A DNA stretch of 64,000 nt from Rhizophagus irregularis (Eukaryota): NCBI RefSeq assembly GCF_026210795.1, contig NC_089431.1, positions 3,286,001 to 3,350,000 of the forward strand, in the 5' to 3' direction. The notes beneath the pieces are model-generated. The model searched no databases. It was not told the DNA's origin and saw only the letters and a program-made list of their open reading frames with translations. Made by a program: the position numbers and the translations under genes. How positions within the stretch are numbered: the first letter of the stretch is position 1; each line of letters starts with the position of its first letter. Below, piece after piece: positions 2,300 to 57,935 of this stretch.

Positions 2300-3326
2300 G
2301 TATTTGTCCACCTCCATCAATCCAATTTGCTATAATTGATATCTGTTCTTGTATTACGAGACATGATCTAATGGCATTATTTGGTAAATATGTTAATGAT
2401 TCTTTTTGTACTCCTGTATAATAAAAACATTCTAAATCTTCATATAATGAATCTGGTAAACAACTTTTAAATGGTCTAACCATTTGATAAAATTCTGATG
2501 AATTAATTTCACAAAATCTAATAAAAGGTATCCATTGTCGTAATGTTTCTTCAAATTTATTAAAATCTTGACTTGTCCATTTAGTTATATCATTACTAAA
2601 ATTTGGATGTTTTGATGTACACCATTTAATTATATGATTCCATATATTTATCTCTCTCATTTGAAAATTACGTTGTTCTAATACGAATTCTAATGTATCT
2701 TGATCTATAGTAATAAAATCATCCGCCATTAATAATACATCTGGTTCATTATTAAGAATATTTTGACAAAAATCTTGTAATTCTTTTGAAGCTTCTAATT
2801 TAACTGAAGTCCTATAAACAAATGCGAAACTTTGATGTAACCATAATCTGTGATGATTAAGCAAATGATCTTGCATGAGGTCATGTAATTCATTCATTAA
2901 TAATTCATCAGCTGCTACCAATATCTCCAAACATCTTTCCCCTGATTTTTCTGCTAATGCCATTGTTCCAGTATAAATATACCTATATATATATATATTT
3001 AAAAAAATTTATTAAAAAAAAAATAATAATAAAATAAAAAAAAATAAAAAAAAATCCATATTATAAACCTACTCCAAAATATCACCAAATACTAATGCAG
3101 ATATATTGGGTTTATTAAAAACTATTGCATCTCCTTCTTTCTTTACCCATTGACTTGATAAAGCAGTATTAAAATAAGGTGACCTAATTCTCAATATACC
3201 AGAATGTGCTCTAAAAGTTTTAATGATTGGTTCTTTACCAGCATATATAATTACATCATGATTATAAGCTTCTTTTAATAATTTATGAAAATCTCTTGAA
3301 AGAGCTCTTAACTGTTCAAGTGTCAT
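1527..3326 (-). CDS. BTB/POZ-BACK-TLDc domain protein (2 exons: 3326-3073, 2982-1527)
   Basis: BTB motif DVIIYAG..FRAHSGILRIRSPYF is spliced (GT-AG) into YIYTG. BACK motif EINIWNHIIKW and TLDc motifs LLLRGSIDGF..FHKKCDNKGPT..IIGGYNP..GPCFG..EYEVF follow. There is a poly-Asn tract. Confidence 0.92.
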
Positions 3327-9237: not shown

Positions 9238-10673
9238 TGTTGCGCCTCAGATCGATTCGCCTCAGATTAAAATCGTCATGTGAGGTGCATCAAATTTTAT
9301 TTTCACGCTTTATTTTTATTTTTACTTTATATTTTCTTTTTAGGAACATTATTAACTGTTCCTTTTTTTTCTTACAGGAACTGCTATTTGGAACGGTTAT
9401 TTTGGATTTTTAAGGTAGGTGACGCTTATATATATATATATATATTGTTTTTCTTTATAGGAATGCTATTAACCATTCCTTCTTCCTTTTTCTTTGCAGG
9501 AACCTCTCAGAACGCCATTTGGAGGTTGGAATAGCATGTGAGGATTTCTTTCGCCTTCCTTTATGTTTTTTCTTTCTAGAGATGCTAATAACCATTCCTC
9601 CTCCTTTTTTTTCTTTACAGAAACCTCACTGAACGCCATTTGGAAGTTGGAATAGCAGGTGAGGGTTTTCTTTTGTCTTTTCATTTTGTTTTTTCTTTTA
9701 GGAACGCTATTAACCATTTCTTTTACTTTTTTTCCATATAGTAACTGGTTGGAATAGCTAATTTGCAGGTGTTTTAATTTAAAAGTTGGAAAATTCAAAA
9801 AGTTTATTGTAAAAAATTAGTTTTTTATTAAATTTGAGAAATTTTGTAATAAAAATTATGTATCTTCTACTATTAAATTAAACCAATGAATTAATTTGAC
9901 CATCATTATGAATTTACTTTTTTAAATCTAATTCTTTTATTAATCATAATACAATATTATTTTTTCTATTTCAAATATCAATCTTTTTTGTTTTCTACAA
10001 CATAAACTCTTATTACTATATATCCATTTGATCTATATCCATTTGACTATACATATAAAACAAAGATTTTTTATTGTGACAATAAAAAATTGTCATATAT
10101 AATATTATATAATTCTCAGACTAATTCTTGACACTGCAATGAGTATTCTGATCAATTCCTATAAAGAAAGGAAGAGAAGGAATGGTTAGTAACATTTCTA
10201 AAAATGAAAAATATATAAAAAAATTTTAAACTTACTTTAGAAAATGGCTGTTCTATGGGGTTTCTGTAAAGAAAAAAAGAAAAATGAACGGTTAGTAGCG
10301 TTCTTAGAAAGAAAAAACATAAAGGAAGGCAAAAGAAGACCCTCACATGCTATTTAAAGAAAAAAGAAGAATGGTTAATAGCATTCCTATAAAGAAAAAC
10401 AATATATATATATATATATAAAACATCCACCCACCTTAAAAAATCCAAAATAACCATTCCAAATAATAATGTCCTAAAAAGAAAATAAAGAAAAAATAAA
10501 AAATAAAGAAAACTGGTAACTATCTTTATATCTTAAAGAAAAGGCGTGAAAATAAATTGCCCTCAAATCGAATCTGAGGCATCTCAGGTGATTGATGTTT
10601 CACTTCACGCACCTCACATGACGATTTTAATCTGAGGTGTGTGAACTTCGATTTGAGGCAAGAATCGACAACA
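9238..10673. mobile_element. Non-autonomous TIR element with long imperfect inverted arms, TGTTG...CAACA termini, in a (TA)n site
   Basis: CCTCAGATTAAAATCGTCATGTGAGGTGC at about 9260 is inverted at about 10609-10637. The (TA)n-TTGTTTTTCTTTATAGGAATGCTATTAACCATT block at 9428-9477 is inverted at about 10370-10420. No transposase ORF is present. Confidence 0.85.
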
Positions 10674-13290: not shown

Positions 13291-13675
13291 CAGTGTTGGG
13301 TTTTGGACTTGTCCAATTGGTTTTTTTAATTGGACAATTTTGGATTGTTCAAAACCAGTTTTGGACATAGTTTTGGACATAGTTTTGGACAGTTTAAAAC
13401 TGCTCAAGAGTCCTAATATTCATCAACTGAAACTAAAAATAAAATAAAAATATAATGTTAAAATGTTAAAAAAGTAAATATTTAATATTAATTAAATGAT
13501 AAAAATTAATATAAAATCAAATAATATTAAAAATTAATATTTAAAGATTTTTGAAGTAATTTAATAATTGAACTAGAATTAAAATTAACCAAAATTAGTC
13601 ATAATTTTAGCCAAAATTAAATTTTTTGTCATGTGATCTGTCCAAAACATCCAATTGTTCAATTGCCCAACACTA
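13291..13675. mobile_element. hAT-type MITE (385 bp)
   Basis: TIRs CAGTGTTGGG...CCCAACACTA, perfect 8-bp TSD CTGTAAGC (13283-13290 and 13676-13683), and subterminal TTGGAC repeats. Confidence 0.92.
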
Positions 13676-14218: not shown

Positions 14219-14922
14219 TAGGGATCGGAAAAGATTCGATTAAAATCGAAACTATCGAAAATCGATAAGAATCGATTTTAAATCGAATCTCGAATAAAAA
14301 TCGAATCTACTTATTGTGGCGCAGTTTCGTTAATTTGACCGTAAATTATTATTTGTTCATAATCGTTAATTTTTCGCCAAATTCATAATTCCGCCCGCGA
14401 ATCACGTGACAGAACACAAACTTCCTAAAAAGGAAATTTTATCTCCCAATAAAATTCAAGTTGCTATCGCACAAGGTTGTACAAATTTCCAAAAAGGAAA
14501 TTTGTTCGTCGATCACTGTAATTTTTTTGTAATCACGTGATATGTGTTTAAACACACATCTACCCCAGTATCGCCAGAAAATTTTTTCACCCCCACGTGA
14601 CTTTGGCCGGCATTATGAGATTTGGCTGGAATTAAGAAATTAACCATGTGTCGAATAACGTGTGATGAATAGGATTTTAGACACTGAAAAATGCTAGGGT
14701 ACAGAATCACTTTATAAAAAATGAGAAAGTGGAGGGATGTGACACGGGTGACAAATTATTTAGGGTCGCGTGGGGGTGAAAAAATTTTCTGGCGATACTG
14801 GGGAAGATTTAAACACACCTATTATAAATAGTATAAAAAAAAATCGGTATTTGCGAAACGATTAATCGCGATTAATCGATTTTAGAATCGATTCTAATAA
14901 TGGGAATCGATTCCAATCCCTA
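14219..14922. mobile_element. hAT-type MITE (TAGGG termini)
   Basis: TIRs TAGGGATCGGAA / TTCCAATCCCTA (11 of 12 match) and many AATCGA(T) subterminal repeats. The decayed 8-bp TSD (CTCTATGA / CTCTA-A-CGA) can be collapsed to rejoin ORFs 14013.. and ..15115 in frame (LLYDGSDY). Confidence 0.85.
14558..14808. mobile_element. Mutator(MULE)-type MITE (251 bp) nested in the hAT MITE
   Basis: Near-perfect TIRs of about 44 bp (ATCTACCCCAGTATCGCCAGAAAATTTTTTCACCCCCACGTGAC) and a perfect 10-bp TSD TTAAACACAC at 14548-14557 and 14809-14818. Confidence 0.9.
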
Positions 14923-49119: not shown

Positions 49120-52100
49120 TTAATATATCTTCCTATTAATTGGTATTACCGATATATATTTTTTTTTGCCTACTGTAAAAGAACCTTCAATAAATCGACC
49201 TAATATACTGTGCACCGGAATAATACAATCTCTACTATGTTCGAAAAATTCTTTTTTCCATAGTTCAATATTGCAAGATTCAATTTCATCATTAATTTTA
49301 CAGTGAAATCTAGTATTATGGTTATTTGCTAGACGATACCACCTAACAAATGCTAAAGCATGTTTCTTAGATCCTTCCAGTAAATGTAAAGTATGTTCAA
49401 AATAAAATTGAACAATTCTGGGATAAGTATCTTTAGTATTTCCATGGGTAAATTGTGATAAAATTTTAGCTGATGTGATGTGTCTTTTTGAATATGATGA
49501 TGCAAATACTTCTGAGCCAAGTCGTAATCGCCCATAAATATTTACCTTTGAAAGTACTGGTATAGCTTCTGGACTGGCAACATGGATATTTGCTAATGCT
49601 ACAAAATCTTTATTTTCATAGGCATTGTAATAATATTCAACCAACAGATCTAATATTTCTTTTGGTAGGTTTGTATTTATTCTTTTAGAATTAAGAAAAG
49701 TACCCAGAAAGGATTCAGAACCTGTTCCAGCCATTTTTTCCACATTTCTGGATATAGATAAAAATTTCTGGTAGTCTATTTCATCAAATTCATCTTGAAC
49801 TGCAAGACTACTACTAGTTTCTTTTAATGCTATTAAAGGTAAACAAGCCGATAAATGTTGGTGATCTTGGACGCACGAAGAAAATTGATCAAGAAGGGAG
49901 TTATAATGAATTGTTTTTAATAATTCTAGCTCAATTTTTCTGTTACTAGTATGATACGAACCTATATATATGAAATAATAAATAATTAATAAATATGAAA
50001 TATATAAATGTAATAAATTTATAAATTTAGTTAAATATAATTTTTTTTTTAATTTTAAAAAATCTGTTAAATATTTTATTTCGTTTTTATTATAGTTTTT
50101 AAAAGGTGAAAGTATTTAAAAGTAGACTGGTTTTTATTGTACTTACCCAGTAAACTATTCATTCTTTCATAACTAAAACACCAAAATGCATATAACAGTT
50201 CATAGTCTAAAGCGCAATGGCAAATATGCAAACATAAATGTAAATTTGGAGAAATTTTTTCTGGTCCGTAATTTTGCTTGATAAGTTTTACCATTGTTAA
50301 AAGCCGTTTGTGTGCCTCTTCTAATCCATTTATTGATATAGTTCTGCATACAAGTATATTATACACGCGAACAAAATTGGCAAGAATTGCTCAATCTGAT
50401 TTCCGAAGTAGATCCCAGGTAATTGTAGTTGCGTACACAAGGATAAAATTTTTCCACTGATTTGCAGTAAACCTTGAAAATCCTTCTCCTGTATCAATTC
50501 TATAGGGGATTCTGCCAATATCTTTTATTAACTTAGCCCTATTCTGCATTATTTTAAGGTCTTTTTGTGTTAATCATTCTTCTTCAATCCACAACCATAG
50601 TACAATCCATTTAGCGATACCCAAAAATAAGCAGTGCATGGGATCGATAATGAGAAATCTGACTGAATCAAAATAACTAAGCCGATACATTTCTGACCAA
50701 CGCACTGAAGTATTACATACGTGAAGACTTCTAGCATCTTTAGTTTTACATTCCAACCATTCCTGTGCATTTTTTTGAACTTGGTTGATATCTCTTTCAA
50801 CAAACCATTTATCAATATTATCGAATCCACCAAAATTTGGCTGATTTTGATCATTGAATTGTGTTTTTTTTAAACATCTATGTTCTATGACAGGCTACAC
50901 GTGCTGATATGTAACCACAGAGCTTTCTTGCAGCTGGAATATCACAAGAGCAGCATATTACTGCAGCTCGAATTGGCTTATTAGTGCTTTTATATATTCC
51001 TGATAGTTCAATCCCATTCCATAATTCTAGTAATTGATCAATTATTGGAGCCAAATAGTGATTTATATAGTGTAGGCTTGGTTCATTTGGTCCGGGAATC
51101 AAAGCTATTGTCAGAATGTTTGATGGTTTAAATTTTTCATTTCGTGAAAGGTTACATATTACACCATATATGGCTCCCACACTATAATTGGCATTATTGA
51201 ATGGCCGAAACCAATCAATATTTAACATAATACCCAAGTGTCTATCAGCCACTTCTTTCCGAAAGAAAGGTAAATTTTGGTCTTCATCCCAAAATATTTT
51301 CCAAACTCGTCCATCATAATTATCATTTAAATATTGAGGAACATTACACTGATCTGCCTATTTCCTGCATGAACTCTCAAATCCTTTTCGATTGTACATC
51401 AATTGTAATTGGTGTTTTAAACTGACAATTGGAAAAATTAAAGAAGGCTCTCCATTTATAGTGTGAACTGTCTTAGTAAGTTTCATCATACATTCATTTC
51501 TTTGATTTGCCATTGGATGATTTGGCAAGTCAATATATGTACAATGACTTTTAATAGGAACTTGAGTAGGTGTGGTAGTTGATACTTCTGCTATATTATA
51601 TAATTTACAACATTTTTCACATGCTGCATATTTTATTATATGAACACATACACCAAGTATTTTGCATGCCATATACAGTGATGTAGGAAAAGATTTATAT
51701 GTATTTGCGTCCAAAAGTACCAAAATATATCTAAAAAATTTAACTAAAGAATCGGTAGTGACGTTAGATAACTTATGCCTTTCTTGGTATAATAAAATCC
51801 ATAAGACAATCCAATTGAAGCTTTCATTAAAATCAACAATAGGTACTTCGATATCATCATATATATCATCTGTTTCTGGTGCATCAAACCCGCTAGATGA
51901 AGATTCATTTGGATTTTCTTCAGTAAAATTGAGTTCATCATCAACACTTTCACTATTATCACCATCGGCATCACCATCATCATCATAATCAGAAATATTC
52001 TGTTCGATGACAACTATTGGATATGTTATTCCACCACTACCAATATCCTTTTGTTTTCCTTTTGGTTTATCTTTCGGTAATTTCTTGGGAAGGAATGTGT

Positions 52101-54626: not shown

Positions 54627-55059
54627 AAGGACGGGAAAAGAATAGTATTGTATTATATTATTGTTTGTATAGCTTAATATTGCTTGTATATAATAAATAA
54701 TAATAATATTTTATATTAACAATTTTCGGTATTAATATTGGTAAATTGAAATAAATAATACTGTAAATATCAAATGAAAATCATGTATAAAAGAGGATAC
54801 TATTGGGTTTGATATTTATATAATATTTACCCGATTGGTAAACCGATTCTTCATTAATTAAAAATGATATTTATAAAGAATAGTTTACCGATATTGTCCA
54901 GAATTTAAACATTAATAGGCAAAGAATCGGAAATGATCATCAGACTATTATAGTAGTACAATCTATGAAAAATCAGTGAAGAATCGGGTTTATGATTCTT
55001 TACAGATATACCATCATTTGACCTGTGTCCAGTAGTTCACCAAAACTGTCATGTCTTCC

Positions 55060-55841
55060 TATCAATTTTCCAGTCTTCTTAATAGTGAGCGTATTTTGGC
55101 AAGCAATGTAAGCTTACCCGACTCACTACCGTCTAAACCTTTCTTCAAATTCTTAAAAGTAGAAGAATTGTTTTTCTTTCCAGAAGGTTTGCCCTCCTTT
55201 TTCTTGTTATTTGTAGTATTTAGTCCAACCTTGTTATCCGAGTCTTGGTTCTGCTTCTGATTACGGCCACTTCTTGATTATTGATTACGACTTTTAGATA
55301 GTTGAGGGGAAAAGTATCTAGTCCAAACACCTTCATATTCATGCAAGTTCAACTTGGTATTCGTGATTTTATCCAAATCTGCCCAATTTTTGTAATACAT
55401 GATGAGCTTGCGGGTACATTTTTCCTGAACCACCTTAAAAGCTTTGCATTCCAAATGTGAGATAGGTGATTGGGAAGGGTCTGAAGGGTATAGCATTAAT
55501 AAGTTGATGACAGTTCCAGGTAAATCTTTCACCACAGCCTGAAATCGTTCTTTTTCCTTTCTTTGTTGAAGATTCCAGTTAGCAGGATACCATCGGACAG
55601 GAAAACCTCCTAAAGGAGCGGTCCAGACTCCTTGATTCTATAGATTCATAGCCCACTCATTGAAGTCAATTGAAACGGTGACCGTTAAGTATTTCTTCTG
55701 ACGTTTAGTCTTGAAAGCGATCACGTGACCCATTTCTCAAGATGCTGGAGAAATTCGAGCTGAGTCCAAGTGGAGGAGATATCGTATAAAGTAATTTCCC
55801 GAACATTGTCCTTCAATACTGGATCATATCCGGTCATTACC
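55060..55841 (-). pseudogene. Truncated LINE ORF1-like relic, paralogue of 15320-16088
   Basis: VMTGYDP..NVREITLYDI..KKYLTVTVSIDFNEW..GVWTAP..PVRWYP..KEKERFQ..LAKIRSLLRRL aligns by eye with the + strand copy. Confidence 0.8.
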
Positions 55842-55960
55842 AATTGTAATTTTACTGATTAATAATAAATAATATTAAATTATTATCATTATAATAATTT
55901 AATATTCTTTGTTAAATATAAATAAAATTTATTTTTACATATTTGAGTAAAATAATATTA

Positions 55961-56430
55961 ATGATAAAGTATTGAAATCTGAAAAATATATATATGAAAT
56001 TTTATCATCTGAAACATTAAGAAAGTAAAACTATTAGGAAAAAATATTAAGCATTAAAATACTAGATTGTAATAGATTGTATTTTGTAATAGATATAAAA
56101 AAGATATTTGGAAATCAAGAAAGAATAAATAAAAAAAAAATCTATTATACAAGAGTTAGTTTAAAGAGATAAAAAGAAAATCTTAATAGGTTATATAAGT
56201 ATTTTAGATAGAAATACTTAGACTATAAACTTATTAAAAATATCAGATTAAATTTCAAATGGAAATTTAAGTCTATTTTGAAATGATTATACTAAGAAGA
56301 TATTGATTATCTATAAGAACTGGTTTTACTACTTCACTTTTGAATTTGTTGAATACAGTAGATCTTTGTTAAGTATAATATAAGAATCATGCCATTTGGT
56401 TTAAATAATGTTAATATTGATAATATTAAA
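55961..56430 (+). pseudogene. IS607-family TnpA (MerR-like HTH plus serine recombinase)
   Basis: One frame from 55981 reads SSETLRK*NY*EKI..NRLY..DIKKIF..KKIYYTRVS(Ser at 56158-56160)LKR*KENLNR..KYLDYKLIKNIRLNFKWK, then after a frameshift IIYKNWFYYFTFEFVE. This matches TLRRW/CYARVS.KQ.DL.RQ/DIGSGLNFKR/YKDRLCRFAFE. Confidence 0.85.
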
Positions 56431-57711
56431 TCTGATAAAAGTTTACTAGAGATAAAATGGATATTAACCAAGAATTGAAAATGACAAAAAAAGATTGAAA
56501 ACATGAAAAATACTGATTTATTTAACATCTGAAAAAAGAGAAAAGCTAAGAAAATAGATAGGAACTGTAAAGTAAATGTATAATAAAATTCTTGAAAATG
56601 GTGTAAAATAATGGAATTACTAATATAAATGTTATATAAGAGTGTTATTTAAATAATAAATGCTTCACTGAAGAATTTTTATAAGTAAAAGAAACTTTTA
56701 AAAAAGTATATTTGTATGTAATTTAACAATTAATAAGCATATATAAAATGAATAAGAAGTTGTATAAAAATAATTTTTGAATAAAATACTAATTAAAGAA
56801 GAATTAAACTGAATACAAACCATCTCAATTTTTGCCAGGGATTGGAAAAGAAATAGAGGAGAATATATGTTTCTAAAGAGTATTACTTTAGAATGATTAT
56901 TAGAAATTAATAATATGATTAACATAACTATGAATCATCTGAGACATTTTTACTTGTATGTTTCCATTCTTTTGGATATTATTAATAACTAAGATGAAAG
57001 GTACTTTTACTAAATCCAGGTATTTACATGTTTATAACAGGTTATAATCCTATTGTCAATTAATTGAGTGGGATAATGGTTATTGACAAAATATTTAAAT
57101 TGTTCAAGAAATACAATAAATTACAAAGTGACAAGGATCTTACTTTGAAAAGAACAAACAAGAGAAAGAGATTTCAATTGAGAAAAAAGATGCTATGAAT
57201 CATATAATGAATCCATAATTTGATAGATGAGTGCAGTGTTGGGCAATTGGACAATTTTGGACAGGTTTGGACAGTTTTGGATAAGTTTTGGACAGGGTTT
57301 TTGACAATTCTCTTATGTCTAAAACCTTTAAAGTTAAAAATTGTGTCCAAAACTCATCACTGGATGAGTGCTATCACCAGCTGGCCTGATGGTTATGTTA
57401 GAATTACAAGATCATTTTGCTACCTGAATTCAAAACATCATATATTGTGCTCAAGAATAAAAAAAGATCCAATTGAGGATAGCCCACACAATGCTAACTT
57501 GGTTACATTTCAGATTTTGAATGTTTCTTTTGCACAAGCTAAGAGAGTACAAGTATTGCAAGGTTATCAAGTGAGGGGTACACTTCTAAGACATGTGGGC
57601 ATTGCGGACAAATCAATGACAAACTGGGTGGTTCTAAGACTTGATCGGGATGCGAATAGGGTGAGGAACATCTTACTCAAATTGTTAACGAAGGGTCAGG
57701 TTTTGGCCTGA
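56290..57711 (+). pseudogene. Fanzor2 (TnpB-family RNA-guided endonuclease), inactivated
   Basis: HTH_OrfB-like KILIYLTSEKREKLRK*IGTVK*MYNK (56492-56597); WED-like NHLRHFYLYVSI; RuvC-I LNPGIYMFITGYNP (57010-57051); IHNLIDEC..LA*WLC*NYKIILLPEF; MLTWLHFRF; EGYTSKTCGHCG..LGGSKT; RuvC-III DRDANRVRNI. Confidence 0.88.
57234..57362. mobile_element. hAT-type MITE (129 bp), same family as 13291-13675, inserted in the Fanzor2 frame
   Basis: Termini CAGTGTTGGG...CTCATCACTG, perfect 8-bp TSD GATGAGTG (57226-57233 and 57363-57370), and TTGGAC repeats. Confidence 0.9.
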
Positions 57712-57799
57712 TATGACTAACTCTATTTATTCATGTTGGATTCAATTTCAAGGGTGGTCTTATCATTTATGGTTGTACGAAGCCCATTCTAGCTTTTAT

Positions 57800-57935
57800 T
57801 CTTACCTCTCTTCTCGAAAAATCTTTGGTTTACAAATGAAAGAAATTGAAATTTGGGAACATGTATTAAAATGATGCACATGGTATATCTTATTCTCGAT
57901 TAGCTCAGTTTGGCTTCACAAACTTGAACCGCAAT
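57800..57935 (+). pseudogene. BACK-domain fragment of a BTB-BACK gene
   Basis: LTSLLEKSLV..QMKEIEIWEHVLK* resembles the intact paralogue at 43025-43990 (SIPEKLLV..DEIHIWEYVLKW). Confidence 0.65.

Follow-up and report, generated by a model that had tools for sequence, protein, structure and literature searches.

A dead, 5'-truncated IS607-type transposon with TnpA and Fanzor2 genes in an arbuscular mycorrhizal fungus, from a family that has likely jumped recently in other such fungi

Described IS607 and Fanzor2 systems

Fanzor2, which belongs to a class of nucleases that are RNA-guided, was defined in IS607-like elements, with one fungal case among them (Bao and Jurka, 2013), and IS607-like sequences with overlapping open reading frames were reported from fungi by Gilbert and Cordaux (2013), in whose account, in the part used here, transposition could not be proven. 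Jiang 2023 agrees on the Fanzor2 class, which Yoon 2023 (PMC10711439) defines by a catalytic Glu placed just upstream of the zinc finger, and a 2026 review treats IS607EU as a transposon class. Fz2 proteins are broadly distributed in fungi according to Saito 2023 (PMC10432273), whose tree table labels Rhizophagus and Diversispora proteins FZ2. Likewise, Tables S2, S3 and S5 of Yoon 2023 contain Glomeromycota Fanzor matches that include the family of the element described below: CAG8831838.1 (Gigaspora margarita), CAG8458869.1 (Paraglomus brasilianum) and CAG8745717.1 (Ambispora leptoticha), all in Table S2, are 78-84% identical to P0004, an intact member of that family. Unlike the present loci, those Glomeromycota rows of these tables that a search matched are mostly protein fragments, listed there without ends, target or copy ages.

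Among whole elements, ISvMimi of Acanthamoeba polyphaga mimivirus (ApmFz2, 9B0L) shares with this family a serine-recombinase TnpA beside a Fanzor2, the DPG motif, the shifted Glu and GG ends, but identity in the fold alignment is ~22%, and the present setting is a fungal nucleus, with a predicted YACGG target and, in the window, a dead copy. Cyanobacterial pro-Fanzor IS607 elements (e.g., Nostoc PCC 7120 plasmid alpha) are similar in their DPG, shifted Glu, TnpA(Ser) and long tnpA/nuclease overlap, yet are 34% identical and occupy a separate tree clade. CboIStron (IS607 TnpA-S/TnpB, 10.1101/2023.11.20.567912) has, in the sections of that paper drawn on, a GG core at both ends and a target that differs from the right end at -3, as do ACGG and AGGG here, a self/non-self logic shown for CboIStron; it is, however, bacterial and was tested in E. 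coli, and its group I intron has no Rfam match in the present loci.

Literature searches that left subscription papers outside their reach returned no match for IS607 with arbuscular mycorrhizal fungi (Repbase also lay outside this search) or for horizontal transposable-element transfer with Paraglomus and Ambispora, and for Fanzor with Rhizophagus, among the papers listed, nothing on the window family as judged by title and abstract start. The family may already be described in preprint supplements or Repbase. The novelty implied by a sequence-only reading of this DNA was therefore overstated, given that Glomeromycota Fanzor2 proteins stand in two 2023 supplements and that the kind of element is already in print. 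The present analysis adds both ends, five near-identical copies at five sites and a predicted YACGG target, as well as purifying selection on both genes, a frame-breaking A-tract and a 99% protein identity between orders.

The window element and its decay

The window is the whole 64-kb stretch of DNA that was analysed. Complete IS607-type elements of ~2 kb from soil metagenomes are collinear with its positions 55849-57754; blastn against 13 metagenome loci (L001-L013, out of 313 pattern matches) gives aligned blocks at 55849-57234 and 57363-57754, with E down to 1e-171. The earlier reading had placed a hidden IS607-type element at 55850..57800; ~90 bp of the left end are gone, and the real end is 57754. 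To judge from its sequence, this part is a real, dead IS607-Fanzor2 copy with the following features.

55849..57754, + strand: remnant of an IS607-type (IS607EU) element, from blastn to L001-L007; ~2 kb when whole
55849..55954, + strand: inner part of the left end; outermost ~90 bp, including the GG junction, gone
55955..56586, + strand: tnpA pseudogene, MerR-like HTH and serine-recombinase domain; maps to L001 238-924
56129..57711, + strand: Fanzor2 pseudogene; maps to L001 416-1957, from tblastn of P0004
57226..57233, + strand: left copy of the 8-bp target duplication GATGAGTG, from the sequence
57234..57362, strand not given: 129-bp MITE with CAGTG termini; a gap in all alignments to relatives
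57363..57370, + strand: right copy of the 8-bp target duplication GATGAGTG, from the sequence
57643..57754, + strand: predicted omega-RNA scaffold region and right end (TTCAATTTCAAGGG); conserved up to GGG in 10/13 loci
54950..55848, - strand: fragment of another multi-copy repeat, adjoining the truncated left end of the element

The identity of the element rests on the alignment of intact relatives and not on profile matches of its raw frames. When the whole window is searched with P0004 by tblastn, the only matches (E 3e-65 and 5e-26) lie in order within 56468-57708; tblastn of P0059 matches the TnpA part at 55990-56520. The profile searches suggested with the sequence-only reading succeed for the intact proteins of L001, which exceed the NF033518 and NF040570 cut-offs, but the raw read-through frames give a single weak Pfam match (HTH_OrfB_IS605, E 6e-4, under cut-off) and none in NCBIfam. 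All motifs named in that reading are present in a three-frame translation where it had located them, and codon mapping to L001 places them collinearly with the intact relatives. The excision it proposed (57234-57370) restores alignment to the relatives because the 129-bp insertion sits between two GATGAGTG copies. The window TnpA is 52% identical to that of L001 over 198 codons; the Fanzor2 pseudogene starts at ~56129, inside tnpA, and its first ~450 bp overlap that gene in a different frame. At the left, the match to a left-end profile is weak (E 0.8) and starts no earlier than profile position 92, and blastn to L005 begins 94 bp inside the L005 left end; the lost part was sought elsewhere in the 64-kb window and none was found.

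Lesions, located by codon mapping onto L001, are spread over the whole copy, which is dead, as had been claimed from its stops, the D-to-N change at RuvC-I, the loss of the second CxxC and the MITE insertion. In tnpA the start codon has changed from ATG to ATA at 55955, and YARVS now reads YTRVS, the Ser codon being preserved at 56158. In Fanzor2, DPG of RuvC-I has become NPG at 57013 and the second CxxC is gone in a 29-bp deletion, while Pro stands at 57423 and the shifted Glu (57573), the first CxxC (57594-57605) and the RuvC-III Asp (57649) are preserved. In-register stops number 14 in the 198 aligned codons of tnpA and 25 in the 467 of Fanzor2 (39 in total); there are also frameshifts, and the right-end RNA region has 30 nt deleted at 57710. 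The MITE that interrupts the nuclease gene, and which we take to be hAT-like from its 8-bp duplication, has many copies in host runs. Partial relatives of it lie at window 13328-13394 and 13638-13674, and the window contains two further TIR-bounded elements (9260-10637 and 14558-14808, with 34-bp and 44-bp arms) and a Transposase_21 fragment (50878-51252).

Left of the MITE, 345 substitutions separate the copy from L001, 275 of them C-to-T or G-to-A. C-to-T decay outside CpG is patchy and RIP-like. Within 55900-57754, conserved non-CpG C/G sites have changed at 160/337 positions left of the MITE versus 5/101 right of it. Among the other dead copies the C-to-T slope runs in the same direction in L009, L012 and L013 and in the opposite one in L010 and L011. 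A C-to-T step exactly at the MITE was considered and rejected, since the drop starts before the MITE and other dead copies have similar or opposite slopes. In Gigaspora, Dallaire 2021 reports, in the part drawn on, CG-methylated transposons and no RIP signature.

The fungal host proposed earlier is borne out, and the genomic sequence is Rhizophagus-like: the genes around the element are of BTB/BACK/TLDc and F-box types, and one of them is 99% identical to a protein of Rhizophagus diaphanus (Glomerales). Of 24 runs listed, 14 hold at least half of the words of the stretch. The element is no assembly chimera, because contigs of three host runs span its left junction and contigs of two of these its right junction. 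Other copies of the repeat at 54950-55848 align up to 55848, at about tenfold depth; the repeat, in which a Pfam search found no match, resembles a retroelement ORF1 in translation. On the right, 57790-57880 belongs to a gene family of many copies, of which it is a fragment, and host runs show many loose ends there; it resembles BTB/BACK genes, and Pfam gave no match here either. Copy number in the host was judged from run contigs. L001 recovers 3 to 27 contigs in each of four host runs, mostly <90% alike and rearranged, which suggests that the host has a few dead copies. Parts of L001 were left uncovered by these contigs. An intact copy sought with L001 in these contigs was not seen, and none spanned the element, although contigs of this kind cannot prove absence.

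Intact relatives, nuclease class and ends

A search with the C-terminal part of the nuclease returned P0004, a TnpB-family protein of 412 aa whose frame is unbroken, as the one match among 9 candidates; full nuclease frames are present in P0004, P0005, P0006 and P0010. In L001 both ORFs are unbroken (TnpA, 228 aa; nuclease, 513 aa; overlap, 505 nt). Its TnpA scores 168 bits against the IS607 transposase profile NF033518 (cut-off 110), matches Resolvase and MerR and finds IS607 TnpAs in the PDB at E 7e-26, and the nuclease is over the cut-off of NF040570 (RNA-guided TnpB). With TnpA above its cut-off and an overlapping TnpB-family gene downstream, the IS607 architecture read from the decayed copy is sustained. 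Intact copies, which had been anticipated elsewhere in the genome or in relatives, exist in relatives, whereas the four runs of the host itself yielded degenerate pieces only. Between L001 and L005, dN/dS is 0.03 in the TnpA-only part and 0.09 in the Fanzor-only part; by this comparison of sequences, tnpA and nuclease are both under purifying selection between subfamilies. The overlap of nuclease and tnpA (L001 416-921) is at least 400 nt in 47 of 51 DPG-type loci with tnpA among cyanobacterial and viral loci (L014-L174), and the N-terminal nuclease segment is conserved within it. Leaky scanning is one guess as to how both overlapping frames could be translated in a eukaryote. In L002 a second, orphan left-end fragment (3056-3262) lies directly upstream of the full element.

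The Fanzor2 signature recognized earlier is upheld in the intact proteins. Across 91 aligned relatives, picked from 120 among the matches listed, DPG, the shifted Glu (E358), four Cys (the first being C365) and RD are invariant. The best PDB match of the L001 nuclease is mimivirus Fanzor2, 9B0L, by sequence (E 3e-23) and by fold (E 6e-19, TM 0.70 for a predicted model of pLDDT 88). In the fold search ApmFz2 reaches TM 0.70 against 0.38 for SpuFz (Fanzor1), so that the modelled nuclease appears closer to Fanzor2 than to Fanzor1. Tree placement within Fanzor2, suggested as a check, agrees in a FastTree analysis of a 109-row subset with no known Fanzor1 row: the window copy, L001, P0004, P0018 and P0175 form a clade of 5 rows (support 97), nested in a 56-row eukaryote-type Fanzor2 clade (support 99) whose rows are mostly unnamed, the named ones including fungi and protists, and which lies beside the cyanobacterial group. 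More distant Fanzor2 families of Glomeromycota (P0023-P0028, P0084, P0040, P0107) occupy separate parts of the tree. More than one invasion of Glomeromycota by Fanzor2 is suggested.

The right end, TTCA[A/G]TTTCAAGGG, is found in the window and in 10 of 13 loci (two with a common flank), after which the DNA is unrelated. Eight loci reach the left junction, with GG in 7/8; counting L001 and L002 once, the independent left sites (n=7) read YACG in 7/7 and YACGG in 6/7, compared with 42 of 3006 GG sites in the window. The sole exception is L006 (519-523), with ACGC-CT in place of ACGG-TT. Neither TIRs nor target duplications are evident at the element ends in flank alignments of relatives, which have the GG at both ends expected of IS607; the window retains the right end only. 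Rejoining the L004 flanks produces a short inverted repeat with TA on either side, and for this reason, in this one case, the sequence suggests that ACG belongs to the target and not to the element; the predicted target of the family is YACGG. L001 and L002 have ~70 bp in common left of the ACGG junction while their right flanks differ, and because of this common left flank the real left end of both may be farther outward. Folds of the right-end RNA give z of -1.7 to -3.0 against shuffles in L001/L005 and -0.8 in the window, and the predicted omega-RNA fold has a double change in 1 of 51 pairs. An Rfam search of three loci found no omega-RNA or group I intron, one chance match being its only return. 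RNA run X17, which holds a small share of the stretch, is uninformative on expression because its pieces on the element are short and <90% alike.

Young copies, competing explanations and meaning

L003-L007 are 99.3-99.95% alike (99.34-99.95%), differing by 1 to 13 substitutions over ~2 kb, and have five different flank pairs and hence five sites; from their sequences they likely reflect recent transposition. The TnpA of L005 is identical on 30 contigs. From protein clusters we infer Paraglomus, Ambispora and Gigasporaceae (Gigaspora, Racocetra) as the probable hosts of L001 and L003-L007; flanks of these loci gave one weak SAM match. In all five young copies an A-tract breaks the nuclease frame (lengths 9, 9, 10, 10 and 13 A, 11 being in frame), at these positions.

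L003 1752, L004 1520, L005 2939, L006 2019, L007 1814, strand not given: A-tract, frame break

Given that the frame is broken in all five, recent spread did not obviously need the nuclease. Protein clusters contain forms for 9 to 13 A, and in the P0018 cluster 8 of 15 members among those listed read through in frame; the variation in length is either slippage or assembly error. Further, Fanzor2 proteins of Paraglomus brasilianum and Ambispora leptoticha (P0156, P0157) are 99% identical over 214 aa, despite belonging to different orders (Paraglomerales and Archaeosporales), and the Ambispora contig that carries the gene is only 1262 bp. This identity represents either recent transfer or contamination.

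Very probably, then, the window holds a dead 5'-truncated IS607-type transposon (TnpA plus Fanzor2) of an arbuscular mycorrhizal fungus, and the family of this transposon has likely made recent jumps in other fungi of the kind. This explanation builds on the architecture, the lesions, the ends, one relative with both frames intact, purifying selection and near-identical copies at different sites, all of which are shown. By analogy with the rules for CboIStron (10.1101/2023.11.20.567912) and, in the part consulted, ISXfa1 (PMC10711439), TnpA would excise the element as a DNA circle, as bacterial IS607 does, and the circle would be inserted by recombination at GG, with YAC-GG preferred here. The right end would be transcribed as omega-RNA with flanking DNA, from after the right-end GGG, as guide; Fanzor2 would cut the empty site at a predicted TAM ending in CGG, and repair would restore the element. 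The window copy would later have gained its MITE, lost its left end next to the other repeat and undergone decay, for the most part through C-to-T change.

The copies could instead descend from endosymbiont or giant-virus DNA that came in passively, never transposed in a fungal nucleus and was multiplied by segmental duplication. IS607 is of prokaryotic origin, the same layout occurs in giant-virus and cyanobacterial relatives, and Gilbert and Cordaux (2013) could not, in the text drawn on, prove transposition in eukaryotes. However, the copies are alike exactly as far as their GG ends and differ in their flanks, and the window neighbours are ordinary fungal genes. A search with P0004 patterns in prokaryote genomes and viral contigs found no close relative, full-length identity being only 31-37% (prokaryotes) and 42% (viral) against 78-90% in the family. 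Passive DNA is thus largely refuted and quite improbable. Still less credible is capture of Fanzor2 by a TIR transposon (Fanzor2*, known in algae and molluscs according to PMC10711439) with tnpA as a leftover: the TIR element that is indeed present in the window copy is the 129-bp insertion within the nuclease gene, found in no relative, the family ends in GG with no TIRs or duplications evident in flank alignments, and TnpA is under purifying selection. That the motifs arose by chance in AT-rich DNA, as the near lack of profile matches from raw frames might suggest, deserves no credence in the face of collinear matches at E 3e-65 (protein) and 1e-171 (DNA). The transposon explanation is therefore preferred.

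A further proposal, which we hold tentatively and think rather doubtful, is that the family is now transposing in mycorrhizal-fungus nuclei, with precise YAC-GG insertion, recent horizontal transfer between orders and a nuclease switched on and off by A-tract slippage. If it is true, an intact member would offer a compact RNA-guided nuclease of fungal origin, for which a CGG-type TAM is predicted, together with a recombinase that natively targets GG.

As a fossil, the copy in the window is of value for the living family to which it points, and that family matters modestly. Among the members of the family is an IS607-Fanzor2 element that is complete and apparently intact and that likely comes from fungi which need a plant in order to be cultured. 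As ends, target and guide position are predicted, cleavage and transposition are directly testable. Near-identical copies with exact ends bear on the question raised by Gilbert and Cordaux (2013), in the text used here, of IS607 transposition in eukaryotic nuclei. Finally, the identity across orders, if genuine, would mean that a transposon has recently been transferred among mycorrhizal fungi.
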